Shown here: in pieces, positions 3,682 to 39,458 of the stretch | Numbering within the stretch: position 1 is the stretch's first letter | Layout of the letters: every line of letters starts with the position of its first letter | DNA from: a virus | Length of the DNA: 39,458 nucleotides | Virus record (IMG/VR): IMGVR_UViG_3300045988_159199 | Strand: one strand, 5' to 3' | Translations under genes and position numbers: made by a program | Notes under the pieces: generated by a model | Told to the model about the DNA's origin: nothing | The model's database searches: none | Seen by the model: only the letters and a program-made list of their open reading frames with translations

Positions 3682-3995
3682 AGCGTTCCACGACATGGCG
3701 AGTACCGTACAGCAGCAACAGCGTTTTGCTTACGCGCATCGGTGATATCTGTTTCATGGGCGGCAACGTGAAATTCAACAATAGCGGGCAGAACAATTAC
3801 ACGACGGCTCAGGAGAAGATCCCCGAAGGGTATCGACCCGTCAGCGTCAATACGCCCGTGGCCGTTTTCGGTGGTGAAACGACATTCATCTGTTACGGCG
3901 AGGCCAATGGCACCGTCACGATGCTCGGCAACCCGAACAGCGCGTATGCGGGATGCACCGGCGTATGGCGCACCACCGACCCCATGCCCGCGTAG
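3672..3995 (+). other. Silent RBP C-terminal cassette 2
   Basis: The frame is open from the TCC of S2 to TAG 3993-3995 (SLTQRSTTWRV...IPEGYRP...GVWRTTDPMPA). Confidence 0.75.
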
Positions 3996-3997
3996 TT

Positions 3998-4008
3998 TTC
4001 CCTAACCC
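3998..4008 (+). repeat. Shufflon crossover site S3 (TTCCCTAACCC)
   Basis: Exact 11-mer, 2 nt after the cassette 2 stop. Confidence 0.8.
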
Positions 4009-4322
4009 CTGTCACGGGCCGGGTCAAGATGCCGTATTCCGATAGGTATATCACTCTGGTTCGCGTCGGCCGTATCGTCACCGCCTGCGCGTATATCACG
4101 CTGACAAGTAATTTCAATCAGGTCGGCAACGTGTCCGTCAACGAGACAATTCCGGAGGGTTTCAGACCGTCCGGCGATTCCCGCGCGGTCATGCGCGGCA
4201 CCGACAACAGCGGCGCGACCAGTTTCTACCTTTACGGCACCGCAGACGGGAAAATGGTGTTGAACGGCACCGGATATACCAGCCGATTCGTCGGTATATC
4301 CGGCTGTTGGATTACCGAGTAG
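3999..4322 (+). other. Silent RBP C-terminal cassette 3
   Basis: The frame is open from the TCC of S3 to TAG 4320-4322 (SLTPVTGRVKM...IPEGFRP...GCWITE). It is a paralogue of cassette 2. Confidence 0.75.
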
Positions 4323-4324
4323 CA

Positions 4325-4335
4325 TTCCCTAACCC
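4325..4335 (+). repeat. Shufflon crossover site S4 (TTCCCTAACCC)
   Basis: Exact 11-mer, 2 nt after the cassette 3 stop. Confidence 0.8.
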
Positions 4336-4700
4336 AAACCCAGCGCATCCGGTTCGACCGTTCCGGCACCACGAGCGCCAATGACGAGATGCACCTGTCG
4401 GGCGCGATACTGCCGGTCAGTCCGGCTATCGCGGTCATCAGCATCGTATGGGTCAACAAGGGCGCGTTCAAGGCACAATCGTGGAAAGCCACCACACTGG
4501 CTCGTATGGTCGGCTGGAAGGTGATTGGATCCGCCGTACATTCCCCGGCTGCGGAGAACATTGTCTACGAGCATCTAGGCAAGAACCAGTTCGCCGCGAC
4601 CGGCTCAGGGGAAATCCAATACATCACGCCGGGAACCATAGACATCTTCGCGAATGCGTGGCATCGCGGCTGTCTGATAGCTCCGGTCACGCCCTCATAA
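4326..4700 (+). other. Silent RBP C-terminal cassette 4
   Basis: The frame is open from the TCC of S4 to TAA 4698-4700 (SLTQTQRIRFDRSG...LIAPVTPS). At 375 nt it is the same length as the currently expressed C-terminal segment. Confidence 0.75.
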
Positions 4701-4703
4701 GGT

Positions 4704-4714
4704 TTCCCTAACCC
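4704..4714 (+). repeat. Shufflon crossover site S5 (TTCCCTAACCC)
   Basis: Exact 11-mer, 3 nt after the cassette 4 stop. Confidence 0.8.
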
Positions 4715-5001
4715 CGGCGGAGTACGCGCCGTATATCCAGTGCGCCGGGCATACGGTAACGACCGGTGATGACGGCACGTTCTGGGTGGGCGTCAAGTCT
4801 CCGAACGGCAAGCCTCCGGACTATGCCTCGTACACGGTCGGCCCTTTCGGCACCGGGTTCAATGACGAGGACGGCATCATCGCCCACCTATGGGACGTGA
4901 CCGCCACCGGAGTCCGGTTCCGCCTCTACACGACGCGCTATCAGCGGTGGTGCGGCAAGACCGCGATCTTCGGCAAATGGATCGCCGTATGGCGCCGCTA
5001 G
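4705..5001 (+). other. Silent RBP C-terminal cassette 5
   Basis: The frame is open from the TCC of S5 to TAG 4999-5001 (SLTPAEYAPYIQ...KWIAVWRR). Its stop overlaps the stop of the expressed gene in the palindrome CTAG at 4998-5001. Confidence 0.75.
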
Positions 5002-5999
5002 CTGAACGTGACACCGTCGGGGATTGGCAAGGTGCGAGGCGTGTGCATGCACCGGTCTCCGTTGGACAAGCCGCCGACGACCATGATGGTGCCGTTCGCG
5101 TTCCAAGTCGCTTGTTTCGCCCAATTGCCGACTGGCAAAGCCCACAGGCAGCCGAGAGACACCGCCTTGGACGGTTTCACTCCCGACGCGTATTGGAACA
5201 CCGGGTAATCGTGGCTCAGGTTCACCGTGCTCTTGAACCCGCTCAAGTCCGCGTGGAGCAGTCGATTACGCTCGTCCACGACGATCTGCATGCCGCCGCC
5301 GTAGGCGTCAGGCTGGAATGATTTCGTGTCCTGCCACTTGAATTTCGCGTACAGGAGCGGCTGGGTTAGGGAAACCCAGACGCCTGATTTTGCCTGGTAT
5401 TCGTTGCCGTCGAGTAGTCGGCATTTTTGCCCTTCCCATGGCGTCCATGCGTCTTTTTCGGTTTCGCTGCGGAAGAGCAGATCGGCACCGGCTGAGGCAG
5501 TGAAGGGGTACATCTGTTCGTAGATGACTCCGGTGGAGGTCATGGAGGTCGCCGTCGATGGGATGGTGACTCGGGCGAGGGCCAGTGCTCCTTCTGGTGT
5601 TGCTGGCGTAACGGGATCCACTGCTGGGGTGCCGGTGACGATGATGGCTTCTGGGCCGTCTGTGGGGTCGCTGGCTGGTGAGGCGGTTTCGTTTTGTTTG
5701 ATGCAGATGAGGTCGATGCGACTGTTGGCGCTGGGGGCGGCGGCGTGTTTGACGCTGATGGTGCCGTCGTTACTGAGCCAGACTGGGCCATATCGGTTGG
5801 TGACGGCATCGAAGGCGGCGATGTCGCTGTTCATGCCGTTCCCTGCCGTGACGAGTCCGGTGAGGCTTTTGGCGGTGATGCTGACGCCGGTTTTGATGTT
5901 GCCGTTGGCGTCCTGGGCGGTGGTGGCGCGGAGTGCAGCGCGGATGTCGAATTGGTCTGCCGCGTCGCTGACTGCGGGAAATCCGTTACGGAGCGTCAT
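4998..5999 (-). CDS. Receptor-binding / distal tail fibre protein with exchangeable C-terminus (expressed shufflon gene)
   Basis: ATG 5999 overlaps the upstream stop (ATGA). It is the last tail gene. It contains the inverted crossover site in frame (VSLTQ). The remainder of ORF 4998-6374 is a shadow frame. Confidence 0.85.
   Translation of the reverse strand: MTLRNGFPAVSDAADQFDIRAALRATTAQDANGNIKTGVSITAKSLTGLVTAGNGMNSDIAAFDAVTNRYGPVWLSNDGTISVKHAAAPSANSRIDLICIKQNETASPASDPTDGPEAIIVTGTPAVDPVTPATPEGALALARVTIPSTATSMTSTGVIYEQMYPFTASAGADLLFRSETEKDAWTPWEGQKCRLLDGNEYQAKSGVWVSLTQPLLYAKFKWQDTKSFQPDAYGGGMQIVVDERNRLLHADLSGFKSTVNLSHDYPVFQYASGVKPSKAVSLGCLWALPVGNWAKQATWNANGTIMVVGGLSNGDRCMHTPRTLPIPDGVTFS
5363..5373 (-). 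repeat. Shufflon crossover site S0, inverted relative to S1-S5, inside the expressed RBP gene
   Basis: gggttagggaa is the reverse complement of TTCCCTAACCC. TCC at 5372-5370 is in frame with ATG 5999, the same S-L-T reading as all five cassettes. Confidence 0.8.
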
Positions 6000-6676: not shown

Positions 6677-7784
6677 TGAAGGCTCCTGTGGTGATTTCGA
6701 TTTTGTCGCTGTCGCTTGAGCCGCGAAGGGTCATGATGCGGAGCTTGTGCAGGCCGTCCGGTATGCCGAACTGGTCGTTTCGGATGATGAGCCCGCAGTC
6801 GTGGCCGACGTCGTATTCGCCGAGCCGCTGGTCTCGTTGGACGCTGAATTGCCATGTGTTGAGGGGGCGTGTGCTGGTGCGGATGGTTTCGACGGCGTGT
6901 GCGAGCGCGGTTTTGGGGTCGGTGACGCTGCTGGACAGGCTTTCGACCTTTTCCAGTAGGGGGAATCCGAGGCCAGTGAAGCTGTGGTCTGTTGCGCGTT
7001 CGATGATTGCTTGGTCGCTGGCTGCTCCGCCTGTTTCCCAGACGATGTTGGCGAGGTCGTTGGCGTCTTGGCTGATTGTGAGGTCGCTGACGGTGTTGCC
7101 TGGCAGGCTGGTGTCCCAGATGGTGGTGGTGTTGCCGGTGAGTCGGGGCTTGCCGGTTTTGAGGAGCCATTCGTAGCCGAGGCCGTCTGTGGTGAGGCGG
7201 GGTTGGAATCGGATGTCGGGCCCGTTTTGGACTTCGGTGAGGTTAATGAGCAGGTCGCCTATGAGTTTGAGCTCTGCTCCTTTGATGTTGCGTTCGTAGG
7301 TGCCGGCCATGTCGTCTTCGAAGGTGATGGGCAGGTTGCCGCCGGTCCAGGTGAGTGATTGTTGGATCCATCGTTTGGCGATGGTCTGGTAGCTGGTGTT
7401 TTTGATGTTGGTGTCGAATCCGGTGTTGGCGGTGCCGTCGCTGTTGGTGAGCTTGTCCGTGTCTTTCATCAGTGGCAGGAGGGTGCGGTGGTCGAAGTAC
7501 GACCAGAGGCCTTTGCCTGAGAGTTCGACGGTGCCGGCGTCGCGGTCGTAATGGCGGGTCCAGATGGGGCCGCCGTTGGTGACTCCTTGGTCTTCGATGA
7601 TGAGCGCGGTGCGACCGGGTATGGAGGCGTTGTAGAGGTCGAGTTTTTGGATTCGTCGGTCGTTGACGCTGACGGTGGCGGTGACGGTTTCGGCTCCGTT
7701 GAATTCGCCGGTCCAGTCGGCTTTGAGGTAGGGCAGGTCGAGGATGCGTCGGCCGGTGCGTAGGTCGCATATTCTGACTCTCAT
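6669..7784 (-). CDS. Tail-associated / baseplate hub protein (Tal-like)
   Basis: 371-aa ORF directly after Dit in the canonical TMP-Dit-Tal order, with good C/G-ending codon usage. Other frames are Arg/His junk. Confidence 0.75.
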   Translation of the reverse strand: MRVRICDLRTGRRILDLPYLKADWTGEFNGAETVTATVSVNDRRIQKLDLYNASIPGRTALIIEDQGVTNGGPIWTRHYDRDAGTVELSGKGLWSYFDHRTLLPLMKDTDKLTNSDGTANTGFDTNIKNTSYQTIAKRWIQQSLTWTGGNLPITFEDDMAGTYERNIKGAELKLIGDLLINLTEVQNGPDIRFQPRLTTDGLGYEWLLKTGKPRLTGNTTTIWDTSLPGNTVSDLTISQDANDLANIVWETGGAASDQAIIERATDHSFTGLGFPLLEKVESLSSSVTDPKTALAHAVETIRTSTRPLNTWQFSVQRDQRLGEYDVGHDCGLIIRNDQFGIPDGLHKLRIMTLRGSSDSDKIEITTGAFNE

Positions 7785-32489: not shown

Positions 32490-32774
32490 TCACGCCATCT
32501 CGCTTTCGGCGAGCGCTGGAATGGTGTTTTCGGCGGTGTCGAGCTTCTCAGCCATGGCAATGATTGAGGACAGAGGACGATGCGTCACGCCCGCAATGCG
32601 GCGCAGCTCGTCAAAGTTAAAAACACCGACATTGATTTTGCGGTTTAACGTGTTCCGAGGAATTTCTGCCCGATCAGCGAGCATAACTTGTGTCATTCCT
32701 GACTCATTGAGGACCTGCTTTATTGCAATCCCTAAATGCCTGTTTTCAAGCAAATATTGTTTCATATGAGACAT
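32490..32774 (-). CDS. Cro-like XRE-family HTH regulator, first gene of the early (lytic-direction) operon
   Basis: GMTQVMLADRAEIPRNTLNRKIN is an HTH. The gene is divergent from its paralogue, and its first codons (ATGTCTCATATGAAAC) coincide with an operator-like repeat. Confidence 0.8.
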   Translation of the reverse strand: MSHMKQYLLENRHLGIAIKQVLNESGMTQVMLADRAEIPRNTLNRKINVGVFNFDELRRIAGVTHRPLSSIIAMAEKLDTAENTIPALAESEMA

Positions 32775-32864
32775 GATAAAACCAAGATTGCGCTCTTCAA
32801 AACACGGCGTGTCTCATATGAAACAAGAATGCTTCATATGTAAGTAAAATGTCTCACATGCCAA
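32759..32864. promoter_or_regulatory. Operator cluster of the genetic switch: four copies of TGTCTCAYATG(AAAC)-type sites
   Basis: 32759-32773 (gtttcatatgagaca) is the exact reverse complement of 32810-32824 (tgtctcatatgaaac). Weaker copies lie at 32831-32845 and 32850-32864. The region is AT-rich and only 74 bp are non-coding. Confidence 0.6.
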
Positions 32865-33229
32865 CAGGAAAGAAGACCGCGACGATTGAATCAAAGGCGC
32901 TTTCAATCGCAATCAAGAGAGCTATGGCCGTACGTGATTTCAAGACACGATCACTGGCTATCGAATCGGGAGTGCCTTATGGCACCCTCCGACGCATCCT
33001 TGAGCTCAATACAGTCGCCGACTATGAACAACTCAGGAAGATTGCGGGAGCATTGCGCATGCCGCTCTCTTCCATCATCGCCGACGCCGAGCACCTTACA
33101 AAAGACGCAGGGGTCATCGAAGATTACCAAGCTACCGATAACCGAGAAACTTCGAGTGACCATGAGAACATCGACATCGACGCATGGGCCGACCGGATCA
33201 AGGCCGAAGATTCCATACACAATAATTAG
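32849..33229 (+). CDS. CI-like XRE-family HTH repressor (no S24 peptidase domain)
   Basis: LAIESGVPYGTLRRILE is an HTH. It shares IAIK, LR.IAG and PLSSIIA.AE.L with the Cro-like paralogue. It is transcribed toward int and followed by a terminator. Confidence 0.75.
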   Translation: MSHMPTGKKTATIESKALSIAIKRAMAVRDFKTRSLAIESGVPYGTLRRILELNTVADYEQLRKIAGALRMPLSSIIADAEHLTKDAGVIEDYQATDNRETSSDHENIDIDAWADRIKAEDSIHNN

Positions 33230-33293: not shown

Positions 33294-34523
33294 TCATATC
33301 TCGTAGGCCTCTATGGTGAGGCTGGTGTAGTAGCGGCTAACGAGTATTTTCAATCGCTTGCCAACAAGTGGCTCAGATGCAAAGTATGCGGCCGTCGACC
33401 GCGCCGTGATTTCCGAGAGCAAGACACCTCCGCTTTTGAGTGCAAAGTGCGGTTTTGCCTGCGATCCTTCCGGCACCGGTAGCTGTTCGACAGTGGCCTC
33501 GAAAGCGATGAACCCTTCGTCGGGAATTCTAGGACCATTCCAGTTGTTCTCCGAGACGCGGAATATTGCCGTTGCGGCGACCACATCCGCTCCATATGCT
33601 TGTCGCTGTTCGTATTCCTTGAGCGAGGCGTTACCAGTTTCGCTTTCCTTCGCCTCTTCCAGCGTTGGCACCATGACGTAGATTTCGGGAACGCCTGTTT
33701 GGTACCATCCTTGGCGCATGGCCACGAGTTCCACATTTTTCGCGCCAGATTCAAGGATTGCACGAATGTGGATTACCGCGATGTGGTTGAAGAGAACGCC
33801 GAACGGTTTCCCTTTGTATTCGACCGCATACCCATCATCCACGCCGCTGCGCCATTGTCTTCCGTTAAGTCGACTTTTCAGCGTTATCGGACGGGTAACA
33901 ACGCTGATTTTTTCGGCACGCCCCTCTTTGAGCTTGAGTATGGGGCGTGGGTCGTAGACGTAGATTGTGGCAGGGTATGAACCGGAGACGGTTTCGGTTT
34001 CCCGAGTCACCGACACTGACAGAATTTTTGGCGGGATGATGATCGGCGACGGCGATATCGTCCTTGACAACGCAGAACTTTGTCCCGTTTCTCGACGAGC
34101 CGACACTAACGCTTCACCATCCTCTACCTCGACGCCGGCGAGCGCAGGCGATGTTTCATCATTGGGCTGTGCATGTCCGTGGTTTGCGCGTCCGTCCCAG
34201 TGACCATTGGCTGCTCGTTTTCGCTCGTGTTCGTTATCCTCGTCCAGCACGATGCTGGGGTCTTTTGCGGCCCTGGCGGCGCGTTGTTCGGCTCGAATCT
34301 TCTCGGGGTCGTGGATCATGTCGCCGACGACCCACAGCATCCATCCGACGAATGCGATGATTAGCGCGATTATGGTGCATGTCAGGAAATCGGTGCTCAA
34401 TCCGCCAACGAAAATCAGCAGGGCGAATATCCATACTCCGATTGCCAGAATCCGGAATATGACCATACCGATGGTTCTGGGCATCGACGCCTTTCGCTTG
34501 GCCTGACGTTTTCCGGGCATCAT
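33294..34523 (-). CDS. Membrane protein, 2 N-terminal TM helices plus about 300-aa domain of unknown function (island gene D)
   Basis: 409-aa ORF with no competing frame. Helices: MVIFRILAIGVWIFALLIFVGGL and FLTCTIIALIIAFVGWMLWVV. It is preceded by the duplicated leader. Confidence 0.8.
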   Translation of the reverse strand: MMPGKRQAKRKASMPRTIGMVIFRILAIGVWIFALLIFVGGLSTDFLTCTIIALIIAFVGWMLWVVGDMIHDPEKIRAEQRAARAAKDPSIVLDEDNEHERKRAANGHWDGRANHGHAQPNDETSPALAGVEVEDGEALVSARRETGQSSALSRTISPSPIIIPPKILSVSVTRETETVSGSYPATIYVYDPRPILKLKEGRAEKISVVTRPITLKSRLNGRQWRSGVDDGYAVEYKGKPFGVLFNHIAVIHIRAILESGAKNVELVAMRQGWYQTGVPEIYVMVPTLEEAKESETGNASLKEYEQRQAYGADVVAATAIFRVSENNWNGPRIPDEGFIAFEATVEQLPVPEGSQAKPHFALKSGGVLLSEITARSTAAYFASEPLVGKRLKILVSRYYTSLTIEAYEI

Positions 34524-34585
34524 GCCTCCAACCTCTTTGTTCGTTCGGCCGACTCGATGCGGCTATGTTTAGATTCTACCGCCGT
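34518..34585 (-). repeat. Leader repeat copy A (68 bp) covering the first two codons, the RBS and a TAGAAT box of gene D
   Basis: It matches 35246-35312 with 2 mismatches and 1 indel. The minus strand reads ACGGCGGTAGAATCTAAACATAGCCGCATCGAGTCGGCCGAACGAACAAAGAGGTTGGAGGCATGATG. Confidence 0.85.
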
Positions 34586-34594
34586 CTTTTGGCA

Positions 34595-35251
34595 TCATTC
34601 CGCCACTTCATCTGCCGACAGGGGTTTCGACCGCCATCGATACGCTGTCACGTTCCTTAAATCATCTATGACTATCCGCGGTCGCAGTTCAGGTCGGCAT
34701 TGCGTTTCTGTATTCCGGTCGAATCGGTCGGCGGCATCACATAGCGCAAGACACAGTTCCTCGACGGATACGACGAGGCTGTACTCCGCGTTTTCCTCGT
34801 CGTCATGTTCCCACGTCTTGCCGAGTTTCGAACTCAGTCCAATACGCAATGAGAACGAGACGTGTTCAAGATTGACGTCATTCCGCATCAGCCTCCCTTG
34901 GTCATCCAACTCGTACAGGTATTTGGTCTCCATATTGGCATCGCCGTTGTGAAGCAGTTCGCAGCGCAGCTTGTAACATGCAAGGGCATCAAAGGCCGGC
35001 ATCGGGTCCTTACCCATTCTTGAGCTAAGGGCATATCCACAGTATTGCCGGTACCAGTCCATGTATCTTTTCCCGACTTTTTTCTCTTCCGGAAAGGCAA
35101 TCTGCCCGTAGGCATCCGGAATTGTGAGCGAAAGAGCTAGGGCGGCGCCATAGCATTCCGCCTGCAGCGTCTTCCTTACCTCATCGGCAAGGCTTATCTC
35201 CATAGGGTTCATCATCTGCGATGCAAGTCTTCTATTCTTCGTCGACATCAT
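34595..35251 (-). CDS. HEPN-like protein (Rx4H motif), predicted RNase/abortive-infection effector (island gene C)
   Basis: The 218-aa product is predicted helical. RCELLH is encoded at 34949-34966 (CGC TGC GAA CTG CTT CAC). An Ala-rich first helix AECYGAALALSLTIPDAYGQ is present. The gene is preceded by leader repeat B. Confidence 0.75.
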   Translation of the reverse strand: MMSTKNRRLASQMMNPMEISLADEVRKTLQAECYGAALALSLTIPDAYGQIAFPEEKKVGKRYMDWYRQYCGYALSSRMGKDPMPAFDALACYKLRCELLHNGDANMETKYLYELDDQGRLMRNDVNLEHVSFSLRIGLSSKLGKTWEHDDEENAEYSLVVSVEELCLALCDAADRFDRNTETQCRPELRPRIVIDDLRNVTAYRWRSKPLSADEVAE

Positions 35252-35312
35252 GCCTCCAACCTCGTTGTTCGTTCGGCCGGCTCGATGCGGCTTGTTTAGA
35301 TTCTACCGCCGT
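35246..35312 (-). repeat. Leader repeat copy B (67 bp) covering the first two codons, the RBS and a TAGAAT box of gene C
   Basis: Near-identical to 34518-34585. Confidence 0.85.
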
Positions 35313-35323
35313 ATATACGGAAT

Positions 35324-35354
35324 CGCCCCGGCCGCTCTTGCGAGCGCCGGGGCG
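35324..35354. other. GC-rich hairpin related in sequence to the 33259-33286 terminator but lacking a U-tract
   Basis: cgccccggccgctc / gagcgccggggcg. It shares the arms CCCCGG.CGCTC and GAGCGCCGGGG with the other hairpin. It lies between gene B and leader copy B. Confidence 0.5.
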
Positions 35355-35369
35355 GCTTCGGAGCATCGG

Positions 35370-36512
35370 TCAGTTGTCCGCTTGCCGAAATGTTTTTGAG
35401 CCGAATCCCATGGAGGCTCCTTGCTCTTTGAGCCCATCCGCCCATTGGTCTAGGAATCGGAATGGCACGTTGAGGCTGTTTTCGGCCTTGAACGTATCTA
35501 TCCCTTTATTTGGGTCGGCCGGGTCTCCGTATCCGGCAACAATCATTTGCTTAAGTAGTATCGGATGCTCGTCACCGACGTGTACAGGCTCCTCTTTTCT
35601 CCATCCTCTCGCGCTAAGTTGGATTTGCAGCGATCGGGTTCTGTCCGCGTCGATTATTCCGAGGTTGCTCGCGCGACTGATCATCGATGATATGGACATG
35701 CCCCATCCTGCTTTGAGTCGCACCAAATCGGTGAGCATGAGGCGCTGTGGCATGATGAGCTTCGCGTCGTTTTGAGGCATGAGCAGAGCACCGGCGAATC
35801 GGTGAGCCTCCCTCTCCATTTCCCGATAGAGCTGGGGTCTGCGGTATCGATGCAGAATTAGGTGTCCGAGCTCGTGTGCGATGGTGAATCTGAGTCTGTC
35901 ACCCGTATTGTTTTTCGCGCTGTATCCGATGGTCGGCATATCCTTGCAGTTCGGTTGCGTCACTCCGTCGCTGTTCAGGTGTGCGGTCTGTTTCGAGGCC
36001 AAGGCATGGAGCGGTGCCACCACGATGCCCATTTTTTCTATGGCGCGCGTGAGATTGGGGACGCTGCCGGATTCATTGAGTCCGAGATGAGTGCGGGTAC
36101 TGTCTGCCAAGCGCTCTATGCGGCTTTGCTCCAGCTCATTTTCTCTTGGAGCTATGGCATCAATCCATGATGTTTTGGGTTGCAGCCTCAGCACCGAGGA
36201 TAGCTTCTGCGCAACCGAGCGGAGCAGAGCATATTCCGCAGCAATGGCGTTTAGTTCTCCGACCGATGCGCTTGACGTATGGCGATACGTCAATTCAACA
36301 ATAGGGACGGGCTGATCCTGGTCGAGGAAAAACGACAACGGGTAGTCGGTCGCCATTGAGATTCTGCGCGCGGCCTCATCGGTGAAATCGATTTGCCGGT
36401 TTTGCAGTTTACTGAGCGTTCCTTGAGCTATGCCGGTTTTTTCCGCGAGCTTTTTCTGGGTCATGCGTTCGACCTGGCGGAGCAGGATGACCCTGTCCGG
36501 ATTATAGTTCAC
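35370..36512 (-). CDS. XRE-family HTH fused to ImmA/IrrE-type zinc metallopeptidase (M78, COG2856-like) (island gene B)
   Basis: The N-terminal HTH reads MTQKKLAEKTGIAQGTLSKLQN. HELGH is encoded at 35862-35876 (CAC GAG CTC GGA CAC) within FTIAHELGHLILH...EREAHRFAGALLMP. Confidence 0.85.
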   Translation of the reverse strand: MNYNPDRVILLRQVERMTQKKLAEKTGIAQGTLSKLQNRQIDFTDEAARRISMATDYPLSFFLDQDQPVPIVELTYRHTSSASVGELNAIAAEYALLRSVAQKLSSVLRLQPKTSWIDAIAPRENELEQSRIERLADSTRTHLGLNESGSVPNLTRAIEKMGIVVAPLHALASKQTAHLNSDGVTQPNCKDMPTIGYSAKNNTGDRLRFTIAHELGHLILHRYRRPQLYREMEREAHRFAGALLMPQNDAKLIMPQRLMLTDLVRLKAGWGMSISSMISRASNLGIIDADRTRSLQIQLSARGWRKEEPVHVGDEHPILLKQMIVAGYGDPADPNKGIDTFKAENSLNVPFRFLDQWADGLKEQGASMGFGSKTFRQADN

Positions 36513-36545: not shown

Positions 36546-37202
36546 CTAGCAACCCACCTTCTCTTCGATTGTCAGGCCCTTCAGAATGTCGATTTCGTCA
36601 TCTGGTTCCGGGTCGAACCCCGGCATCCATCCTCGGCCGCCACCGCCATCCGACATGATGGGGAACGAATACGCCGATTTTCCTTTCGCGCCATACTTTC
36701 CGGGGCTTATCGGCTTATACACGCGCAGGAACGCCGGTTCGGGAAAAAGATAGTCGCAGGCGATGGTGAGCTTGACCTCGCTCAGATCGGGTTGACCAAG
36801 GACGTTGACCATAAGCTGGCCCACACCCTTCGCACCATTCTGGCTGTATCGCGCCCTGCCCGCCAGCGTATGACCGGAACACGGCATACCACGTGTGATG
36901 GGATCAACGGCATGGAAGTAAGAGATTGCACCCGTGGGCGTGTGCATGAGGTGGAAGAATCCCGAATTGTCCACTTCCCACCACCTAACCGGATGAAATT
37001 CTTTCCACTCCTTCGCCATGTTCATGTTGATGAGGTATGCCGCGATTCGCGATTTCTGCCGGTCGCTAAGACGCTTATATGAGGCGAGGTCCTTCTTGAT
37101 GTTTGCGGTGCAGTCTCGAACGAATTCAGGCAGAAACTCGCAGAGCGGACTAAAGGCCTCCATGACCGCCTGCTTCTCATCGATTTTCGCGATATCCGTC
37201 AC
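36546..37202 (-). CDS. Protein of unknown function, first gene of the A-B operon (island gene A)
   Basis: 218-aa ORF with a GTG start at 37202 (an alternative ATG lies 13 codons in). It ends 33 nt upstream of gene B. No motif was recognised. Confidence 0.7.
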   Translation of the reverse strand: MTDIAKIDEKQAVMEAFSPLCEFLPEFVRDCTANIKKDLASYKRLSDRQKSRIAAYLINMNMAKEWKEFHPVRWWEVDNSGFFHLMHTPTGAISYFHAVDPITRGMPCSGHTLAGRARYSQNGAKGVGQLMVNVLGQPDLSEVKLTIACDYLFPEPAFLRVYKPISPGKYGAKGKSAYSFPIMSDGGGGRGWMPGFDPEPDDEIDILKGLTIEEKVGC

Positions 37203-37797: not shown

Positions 37798-38021
37798 GCA
37801 CCGCAAGATATCTCAGCCTCAAGGAGGTCGGCGAGCGCATCGGCACGAGCAATCCGGCCGCGAGGGGGTATCATCTGCCGGAACCGGACGCACTGATCGG
37901 CACGACTCGCGGCTGGCTTCCGGAGACAATCGATGCGTGGAACGCCGCCCGCCCCGGTCGTGGTGCGGGCGGCGGAAGGCCGCGCAAGAATCGCAATCAG
38001 GCCGATTCTCCCACCGCCTGA
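37794..38021 (+). CDS. Xis/AlpA-like small HTH DNA-binding protein (candidate excisionase)
   Basis: GGGAGG lies upstream of ATG 37794. Sequence: YLSLKEVGERIGTSNPAARGY..TRGWLPETIDAW, followed by a basic tail. Its 3' end overlaps the integrase 3' end by 25 nt (convergent). Confidence 0.6.
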   Translation: MSTARYLSLKEVGERIGTSNPAARGYHLPEPDALIGTTRGWLPETIDAWNAARPGRGAGGGRPRKNRNQADSPTA

Positions 38022-39238
38022 CGAGCCTTGTCGGCGAGCGCCGCAAGGCTTGCGGCGGACCAGTGGGTGTATCCGGCCGTCGTGCTGATTTTGGCGTGGC
38101 CCATCATCGCTTTTCTCGCGTCTTCCGGGGCTCCGGCTTCGGCGAGGTGCGTGGAGAAGAAGTGGCGGGCGCTGCGGATGGTGACGCAGGGCAATCCGGC
38201 GTCTTCGAGAGAGCGTTTCCAGCGGCGGCGTTCCACGGTGTTGGTGAGCGGGTGTCCCTCGCGCGTGAATATGAGCTGGCCGGGCTGGCATTGCCTGCGT
38301 CCGACGAGCGCCCAGAGTCCGAGCCACGTCTGGTTGCTGACGGGCACGAACCGGTTGCCCTGCTTGCTTTTCGGTTCGACGAGCCAGAAGCATCCCTCGT
38401 AATGGCGGGAGCGGAGCCAGTTGGGCACTTCTGCATCGGATCTGAAGCGTTGGAGCTCCCACATGATCTGGATTCCGTGCACGCCGTCGACGGTGGCGAG
38501 CTCTTCGGGCAGGATGGCGAATCTTTCGGCCTCTCTCATGCCGGTCTCGAACATGATGTTCCACATGAGGCTCCACATTTCGCGGTCGTCGTCGGTATCT
38601 GCCAGGTGGCTGTATTTGCGACGCTTGGGGTCGAGTGCGGCCTGCGCCGCCCGGGCCGGCTGTCCGGGTTCGAGGATTTGGGTGGCCTGCGACTCGTAGC
38701 GCGGCGGCGTTGCGGCGAGCGCCGGGTTCGATGGGATGAGGCGTTCGCGGACCGCTGCGTCGAGCACCTGCCTGAGTCTGAGATAGTGGTTGTGGACGGT
38801 TTTGCTTCGGTGTTCCTTGGCGAGTTTGGCGCACATTCCGTCGATGGTGGCGGGGGTTATTCTGTCGAGTCGCATTCCGCCGATGACGCTGCGGATGGTG
38901 TTGCAGTCGGATCGATAGGTTTCGAGGGTGCGGGGTTTGACATTGGGCGCGATGGTATTGAGCCATCGCTCCATCCATTCGTCGAGCGTTGGGGTTCCGG
39001 CCAGGGGCATATCGCCCTCGCGCTGCAGTCTTTTGATTTTTTCTTGGAGCCGCTGCCGCGCGGCGGTCTTGGTGGGAGCCTGCGCCTCGACCATGCGGCG
39101 TTTGCCGGTGCGCGGGTTTGGTGCGATTTCTTTGCGCGCGTGCCAGGTTCCTCGTTGATCCTGCCATTCGCTGCCGCTTCCCCGCGGCCTGCGTGGAGGT
39201 GTTTTGGACGTCGTTGTTTGGTTCTGTGCGGGCATCAT
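37997..39238 (-). CDS. int: Tyrosine integrase
   Basis: RSARHFFSTHLAEAG and MMGHAKISTTAGYTHW catalytic boxes are present, with an N-terminal SAM-like core-binding region. The gene is adjacent to att/tRNA. Confidence 0.9.
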   Translation of the reverse strand: MMPAQNQTTTSKTPPRRPRGSGSEWQDQRGTWHARKEIAPNPRTGKRRMVEAQAPTKTAARQRLQEKIKRLQREGDMPLAGTPTLDEWMERWLNTIAPNVKPRTLETYRSDCNTIRSVIGGMRLDRITPATIDGMCAKLAKEHRSKTVHNHYLRLRQVLDAAVRERLIPSNPALAATPPRYESQATQILEPGQPARAAQAALDPKRRKYSHLADTDDDREMWSLMWNIMFETGMREAERFAILPEELATVDGVHGIQIMWELQRFRSDAEVPNWLRSRHYEGCFWLVEPKSKQGNRFVPVSNQTWLGLWALVGRRQCQPGQLIFTREGHPLTNTVERRRWKRSLEDAGLPCVTIRSARHFFSTHLAEAGAPEDARKAMMGHAKISTTAGYTHWSAASLAALADKARQAVGESA

Positions 39239-39409: not shown

Positions 39410-39458
39410 TGGAGCGGATGACGGGAATCGAACCCGCGTAATCAGTTTGGAAGACTGA
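39410..39458 (-). tRNA. tRNA-Gly (anticodon UCC), 3' part only; the 5' half lies beyond the window end
   Basis: The reverse complement reads TCAGT CTTCCAA ACTGA TTAC GCGGG TTCGATT CCCGT CATCCGC T CCA. These are the anticodon arm with UCC, the T arm, the acceptor strand, discriminator U and CCA. Confidence 0.7.

Follow-up and report, generated by a model that had tools for sequence, protein, structure and literature searches.

Gene C and its R-x4-H motif

The virus record IMGVR_UViG_3300045988_159199 of IMG/VR comprises 39,458 nucleotides, which are together called the window here, and is a prophage of Bifidobacterium longum. This study concerns gene C, an open reading frame (ORF) located between the genes B and D on the minus strand (Table 1). 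In an initial annotation, the product of gene C was proposed to be a HEPN-like protein of 218 amino acid (aa) residues carrying one R-x4-H motif, the signature of HEPN ribonucleases (RNases). The ORF and the motif were both found as annotated: RCELLH (residues 96-101) is the sole R-x4-H of the protein, and the segment AECYGAALALSLTIPDAYGQ, then assigned to the first helix, occupies residues 31-50. Compared with a 79%-identical homologue, gene C has a ratio of nonsynonymous to synonymous substitution rates (dN/dS) of 0.14. Gene C is a real gene under purifying selection.

It was found that the gene C protein has no match in Pfam, PADLOC, or NCBIfam. A search of the PDB sequences with the single protein gave no meaningful match, and megablast of the gene C region against phage records gave none. 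In PHROGs, the protein matches a family of "unknown function", phrog_18591 (E 3e-19). Is a single RCELLH significant in such a protein? With its Arg and His content, chance would yield about 0.24 R-x4-H motifs. Thus, RCELLH alone is not significant. On the other hand, R96 and H101 were found to be invariant in 104 sequences of the family, and the motif is therefore significant.

Conservation of the phrog_18591 family

A word-indexed search returned 16 relatives, including B. longum proteins of 97% and 79% identity and Bacteroidales proteins of 40-48% identity. A HMMER profile search against 1.84 billion cluster representatives (clusters at 50% identity) yielded 1744 representatives of the family at E ≤ 1e-3, of which 659 reached E ≤ 1e-10; most are 160-210 aa in length. 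The family ranges over Actinomycetota, Bacillota, Bacteroidota, Pseudomonadota, and Cyanobacteria. When one genome per species was scanned, relatives were found in 141 species, and 508 sequences are grouped under P0001, the intact allele of 97% identity. The homologues of phages and plasmids in annotated records are all labeled "hypothetical protein", and no paper describing phrog_18591 was found in the literature.

Conservation was assessed in an alignment of 104 members that are 23-47% identical to the gene C protein and that all match phrog_18591. P45, Y63, L95, R96, and H101 are invariant (104/104), while A37, L38, L42, D46 (102/104, 98%), G49, W66 (99%), Y93, C97, L100, G103 (93/104, 89%), F133, and C167 are nearly so. 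The initial annotation had staked its proposal on the conservation of R-x4-H among homologues, and every one of these sequences has both residues. The consensus of the family motif is C-Y-x-L-R-[C/N]-x-x-L-H-[S/E]-G. The residue after R96 is Cys in 96 members, Asn in seven (7%), and Arg in one; the seven with Asn have the canonical HEPN motif R-N-x3-H (RNxxxH). That R, H, Y, and P-D are strictly invariant across phyla is typical of an active site. A zinc site made of C97, H101, C167, and C171 was also considered and was rejected, since hydrophobic residues readily take the place of C171 and C92, and Asn occurs at C97 independently, with the other Cys residues kept.

Predicted structure

An AlphaFold model of the gene C protein was built from the 104-sequence alignment, and its secondary structure was assigned by DSSP. 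The model has a mean predicted local distance difference test score (pLDDT) of 87.7 and a predicted template modeling score (pTM) of 0.81; an input of eight sequences gave a pLDDT of 42. It consists of six helices (residues 21-30, 34-41, 44-52, 59-71, 89-102, and 163-179), a loop (72-88), and a beta-rich insert (about 104-162) that includes the strands 131-136, 142-146, and 156-162. Five beta-strands are predicted in all. The protein had been described as largely helical, which agrees with the six helices but not with the insert.

In the model, helix 89-102 has R96-H101 at its C-terminal end, and the conserved G103 and a loop come next. D46 lies near the start of the second long helix, which begins at residue 44. 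In published HEPN families, the motif is located where helix-3 ends and the loop toward helix-4 begins, a conserved acidic residue often lies in helix-2, and the Arg residue is usually followed by N, D, or H (Anantharaman et al. 2013, PMC3710099). The conserved R-x(4-6)-H of HEPN proteins and its position at the end of the core helix are thus both seen in the gene C protein, the latter in the model. The linear topology of the model fits the published HEPN layout, with D46 as the candidate acidic residue. The helices would pack into a bundle, and the conserved residues would be clustered there.

Tandem, fused, and long forms

I found several types of architecture in the family. A metagenomic representative of 413 aa (P0032) joins two complete domains head to tail, and both have LRCxxLH. 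This tandem form fits a dimeric enzyme, as HEPN RNases are. Another representative (P0136) is fused to DUF2971. Moreover, long forms of 286-366 aa occur in 21 of 41 non-redundant loci, and the C-terminal extension of most of them resembles a CheY-like receiver domain. Response-regulator structures match this extension over the full length with E-values down to 7.5e-4, and the Pfam FleQ model matches five of the 21. The usual phospho-acceptor Asp is apparently absent, as judged by eye. In one long form (locus L037, 4523-4918), an ASCH domain replaces the receiver-like domain (Pfam E 2e-6). Such receiver-like, ASCH, and other fused architectures identify the domain as an effector module under regulation.

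In 14 cases, the long form is followed by a gene for a small single-pass membrane coiled-coil protein, with a gap of 3-18 nucleotides (nt) or an overlap of up to 22 nt. The small protein has the motif NTIHLYA, in its extended form NTIHLYA(S/A)L..EE. In Lachnospiraceae and Oscillospiraceae (loci L037-L110; for example, L042 at 3911-4903 plus 4915-5229), about half of the non-redundant members are long forms. One cluster, found in 31 of 80 loci, extends across many genera and is apparently carried by a Tn916-like element. The receiver-like long form and the NTIHLYA membrane protein may constitute a new sensor-effector module.

Genomic contexts of the family

The members are solo cargo genes of prophages, conjugative elements, and plasmids. 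Some adjoin an integrase gene, as in Gordonia phage Bowser (gp32), Acinetobacter phage TCUAN1, and a phage-like plasmid of Lentilactobacillus buchneri. Others occupy the cargo slots of Tn916-like elements, past VirB4, CHAP-lysozyme, and the subsequent genes. In Bacteroidales phages, a member adjoins a Fic gene, and some members are located in lytic-cycle regions.

Do the family members have a common partner? The 80 immediate neighbors in the 41 non-redundant loci were scanned with Pfam, and the top 25 families were listed. Among the listed families, none is found in more than three of the 80 neighbors, and neither NTP_transf_2/MNT nor any other antitoxin-like family is included. There is no enrichment of M78 or helix-turn-helix (HTH) families, either. 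In the window, the Pfam, PADLOC, and NCBIfam scans detected no MNT nucleotidyltransferase. The absence of an MNT or antitoxin-like partner, which had been remarked for gene C, therefore holds throughout the family as sampled by these loci.

The home prophage

The coordinates of gene C, its key codons, and the surrounding features are listed in Table 1. The integrase gene abuts host genes in the sister locus L026. The G+C content of gene C is 52%, and the range over gene C, gene D, gene B, and the gene upstream of B is 52-55%; that of the integrase gene is 63.5%, and that of the window is 60%.

Table 1. Gene C, its conserved codons, and neighboring features in the window
Feature	Position	Strand	Remarks
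Gene C ORF	34595-35251	minus	657 nt, 218 aa; ATG ATG start with GGAGG ahead; member of phrog_18591, HEPN-like candidate
RCELLH codons (R96-H101)	34949-34966	minus	R-x4-H invariant across the family alignment; end of helix 89-102 in the model
P45-D46 codons	35114-35119	minus	Family motif L-T-[IL]-P-D-I-C-G; D46 is a candidate acidic active-site residue
Y63 codon	35063-35065	minus	Y63 invariant in the family; W66 (99%) close by
Promoter-like element and leader of gene C	35252-35312	minus	TAGAAT at 35300-35305; GGAGG just ahead of ATG
Second promoter/leader copy, ahead of gene D	34524-34585	minus	Direct repeat of the gene C leader
G+C-rich hairpin (GCCCCGGCGCTCGCAAGAGCGGCCGGGGC)	35325-35353	minus	Between the B stop codon and the C promoter; also ahead of the L018 homologue
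Gene D	33294-34523	minus	409 aa; hydrophobic N-terminal segments
Gene B	35370-36512	minus	HTH_3 and Peptidase_M78; PADLOC RmrA, E 1.8e-86; NCBIfam spr1629-family repressor/antitoxin
Gene upstream of B	36546-37202	minus	218 aa; weak PADLOC RmrT match, E 0.004, nearly full length
Tyrosine integrase gene	37997-39238		Prophage integrase; adjoins the partial tRNA
tRNA, 3' part	39413-39458	minus	Cut by the window end; likely prophage attachment site

The two neighbors of gene C have the features that the initial annotation described, namely the HTH and peptidase domains of B and the hydrophobic segments of D. Gene B and the gene upstream of it probably form a RosmerTA defense pair beside the integrase gene, as suggested by the PADLOC matches. 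Gene D has no match in Pfam, PADLOC, NCBIfam, or PHROGs. A co-occurrence of D-like genes with gene C had been suggested as worth a search, and it was not borne out beyond close relatives: among the fetched loci, gene D is found downstream of gene C only in near-identical B. longum prophages. Gene D was accordingly rejected as a functional partner of gene C.

Two copies of a cassette of about 65 nt (ACGGCGGTAGAATCTAAACA...GAGGTTGGAGGCATGATG), made up of the promoter-like element and the leader, stand as direct repeats (D1/D3; 34518-34585 and 35246-35312; 96-100% identity) ahead of the unrelated genes D and C, respectively. The same type of leader also precedes the 79%-identical homologue (L018), which lies in a different genomic context, a polysaccharide locus without B, D, or any RmrA. 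The leader has the look of a transferable cassette for the expression of moron genes. No match to the leader was found in Rfam. A role of the leader as a type III RNA antitoxin was rejected, since it folds like its shuffled sequences and also precedes the unrelated gene D. The arrangement of the hairpin and the promoter-like element suggests that gene C is transcribed separately from B.

The sister B. longum prophages retain C and D, and their upstream module differs. There, in L026 (about 6940-6950) and L029, the TGG codon of the invariant W66 has been changed to TGA. The resulting fragments of 64 aa and 135 aa are annotated as BLONG_1922 in B. longum E18. Thus, gene C has been inactivated in some lineages, as expected of a costly gene.

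Elsewhere in the window, a perfect 17-nt inverted repeat (TTGTTTCATATGAGACA / TGTCTCATATGAAACAA) was found at 32757-32826 between two divergent HTH genes (32490-32774 on the minus strand and 32849-33229 on the plus strand). It is likely to be the operator of the prophage genetic switch.

Proposed function and alternatives

The explanation that I favor, with moderate confidence, is that the product of gene C is a HEPN-like RNase working alone and that the prophage uses it as an effector of abortive infection or exclusion. In its mode of action it would resemble the HEPN ribonucleases: the protein would form a dimer and cut RNA in a metal-independent manner, using Arg96 and His101, which lie where the core helix ends, with the aid of Asp46 and Tyr63. 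The gene, a low-GC "moron" beside the integrase gene of the B. longum prophage, would be transcribed separately, and the toxin would serve the lysogen on infection by another phage, through abortive infection or superinfection exclusion. The present data show the gene itself, its invariant motif, how large the family is and that mobile elements carry it, where the motif lies in a confident model, and that no protein partner is conserved, whereas I infer the HEPN fold, the dimerization, the RNase chemistry, the defense role, and the manner in which the enzyme is restrained.

HEPN membership is proposed as a hypothesis that is backed by the motif, by the placement of the motif in the model, and by weak hints of the fold, and by no profile match. 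The hints came from a Foldseek search of the model against the PDB, a check that had been suggested in the initial annotation. HEPN proteins did appear, although only at E-values of 3.8-9.5: AF0298 (2hsb) with an E-value of 3.8 and a TMt of 0.34, and five chains of AbiV (9bj7) with E-values of 4.8-9.5 and TM values of 0.20-0.31. They were the sole named folds among the weak matches. No fold or profile search indicated a non-HEPN fold. The idea of a HEPN protein has thus been strengthened by the motif invariance and the helix-end placement, while the profile searches and the non-significant Foldseek matches have left it at the stage of a proposal.

Several observations weigh against this explanation. 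In 92% of the members, the Arg residue is followed by Cys rather than the usual N, D, or H. The motif is followed by some 60 residues of beta-rich insert, while the HEPN fold is classically all-alpha. With an isoelectric point (pI) of 5.2 for the gene C protein and a median of 5.4 for the family, the proteins are acidic, which is unusual for an RNA-binding nuclease. Foldseek gave no PDB match at E ≤ 0.001, and the family profile found nothing among the PDB sequences; a profile from which the beta insert had been deleted, mimicking the compact four-helix HEPN, gave only chance matches (E ≥ 1). When the 104 members were scanned with Pfam, PADLOC, and NCBIfam at E ≤ 0.1, no relevant model matched, the HEPN models included. 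HepT was compared as well. Residues 35-126 of the HepT query (SO_3166) were verified against PDB 5yep/6m6u, and a DUF86 profile of 121 sequences was built; hhalign gave a probability of less than 1% with either the single sequence or the profile, and the motifs were not aligned. This is a weak negative, since HEPN families are known for their divergence and the profile is narrow (at least 62% identity). Profile similarity to an established HEPN family was thus found in none of the Pfam, PADLOC, NCBIfam, and HepT comparisons. As for the biology, no conserved antitoxin or immunity partner was found for the family in the 41 non-redundant loci, and the leader RNA folds no better than its shuffles (z-score about 0) and has no unusual structure.

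How else could these observations be explained? The protein may have a distinct alpha+beta fold in which R, H, D, and Y catalyze another reaction, on nucleotides, NAD, or modified nucleic acid, and it would still be a mobile-element effector. I regard this as rather unlikely, though as the first alternative to be considered. It accounts for the five predicted beta-strands and the 60-residue insert, for the Cys residue in place of N, D, or H, for the acidic pI, and for the lack of any profile link or significant structural link to a HEPN family. It also agrees with the Foldseek search against BFVD, where the two significant matches are both uncharacterized phage proteins of the same family. In contrast, the L-R-[C/N]-x-x-L-H-x-G pattern and its position at a helix end are exactly HEPN-like, and no fold other than HEPN emerged among the weak PDB matches. 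A broader form of this idea, which seems to me a little more doubtful, is that phrog_18591 is not a HEPN domain but has a new alpha+beta fold, that of an enzyme with R, H, D, and Y in its active site. Such effectors, a class unrecognized so far, would be widespread on phages, plasmids, and conjugative elements, and in Lachnospiraceae they would be wired to a pseudo-receiver and a small membrane protein, forming a new sensor-effector module.

It is improbable that the product is a non-enzymatic prophage accessory with a binding, regulatory, or anti-defense role, whose conserved R, H, and Cys residues are structural or bind a ligand or metal. The residues C92, C97, C167, and C171 do lie near H101 on two helices, the pI is acidic, and the members in the lytic-cycle regions of Bacteroidales phages might be understood in this way. 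However, C92 and C171 vary to V, I, L, or A, and the Asn variants at C97 keep the other Cys residues, so that a Cys3His site is unlikely; the strictly invariant R, H, Y, and P-D residues, moreover, point to an active site.

The location of gene C raises yet another idea, that it is a RosmerTA-type toxin restrained by the adjacent HTH-metallopeptidase B. Gene B has its RmrA match and is the immediate upstream neighbor of C, in the same orientation. According to published work, different RmrT toxins pair with RmrA, and the Rosmer toxins are diverse and often unannotated; the pairing of RmrA with many unrelated toxins would leave room for gene C. Nevertheless, the gene upstream of B is a stronger candidate for RmrT than gene C, which matches no RmrT model. 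The hairpin and its own promoter and leader separate C from B. Furthermore, the 79%-identical homologue does without RmrA, the upstream module differs in the sister prophages, and the M78 and HTH families are not enriched near the family. A Rosmer toxin is therefore quite improbable. Lastly, a chance R-x4-H in an insignificant ORF, for which only the expectation of 0.24 motifs in a protein of this composition speaks, can practically be dismissed in view of the invariance of R96 and H101 in 104 distant homologues, the dN/dS ratio, and the 1744 representative clusters.

If the family does consist of HEPN-type RNases, as favored here, then current defense finders have missed a large cross-phylum set (at least 1744 clusters) of single-gene anti-phage or toxin candidates. 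The family is common in human-gut bacteria, in B. longum prophages and in Tn916-like elements over many Lachnospiraceae genera. Thus, it could shape the conflicts between phages and hosts and between elements in the gut. The tandem form and the fusions to receiver-like and ASCH domains provide handles on the control of a toxin that has no partner.

Comparison with known systems

HEPN-based abortive-infection (Abi) and toxin proteins are well known, and phrog_18591 is new to Pfam, NCBIfam, and PADLOC. In the HepT/MntA type VII toxin-antitoxin system (DUF86, PF01934; 5yep), HepT is a small RNase toxin with RNxxxH near its C-terminal third, which resembles the gene C protein. In contrast, hhalign with the narrow DUF86 profile gave a probability of less than 1%, and no MNT neighbor was listed in the 41 loci. 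The RosmerTA system (RmrT/RmrA) resembles the locus in that the RmrA-like gene B adjoins C. The differences are that RmrA adjacency occurs only in this prophage, that C lacks an RmrT match, and that the gene upstream of B is the stronger candidate for RmrT.

AbiV, an abortive-infection HEPN RNase of Lactococcus (PDB 9bj7), is a dimer of a 201-aa protein that has RNHKSKH at residues 91-97 and a beta-hairpin at residues 141-151 (bioRxiv 10.1101/2024.05.05.592566). The gene C protein is like AbiV in being a stand-alone protein of about 200 aa with the motif near residue 95, a beta-hairpin near residues 140-160, and C-terminal helices. AbiV is an anti-phage gene of the chromosome or of mobile elements, and phrog_18591 is likewise borne by mobile elements. 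On the other hand, the AbiV models (Pfam HEPN_AbiV and PADLOC AbiV) matched none of the 104 family members. The RNHKSKH motif of AbiV is in a flexible loop, while RCxxLH of gene C is at the end of a confidently predicted helix. AbiV is basic, while the phrog_18591 family is acidic. AbiV also needs the upstream RNA antitoxin abiV2, while the conserved 60-70-nt leader of gene C folds no better than shuffled sequences.

Compared with the HEPN superfamily as a whole (AF0298/2hsb, AbiD/F, AbiJ, and AbiU2), phrog_18591 differs in the Cys residue after Arg (92%), in the large beta-rich insert past the motif, and in having no detectable profile similarity. It resembles the superfamily in the conserved R-x4-H with which a core helix ends, in a candidate acidic residue of the preceding helix, in the presence of an insert between helices, and in its frequent carriage by defense loci and mobile elements.
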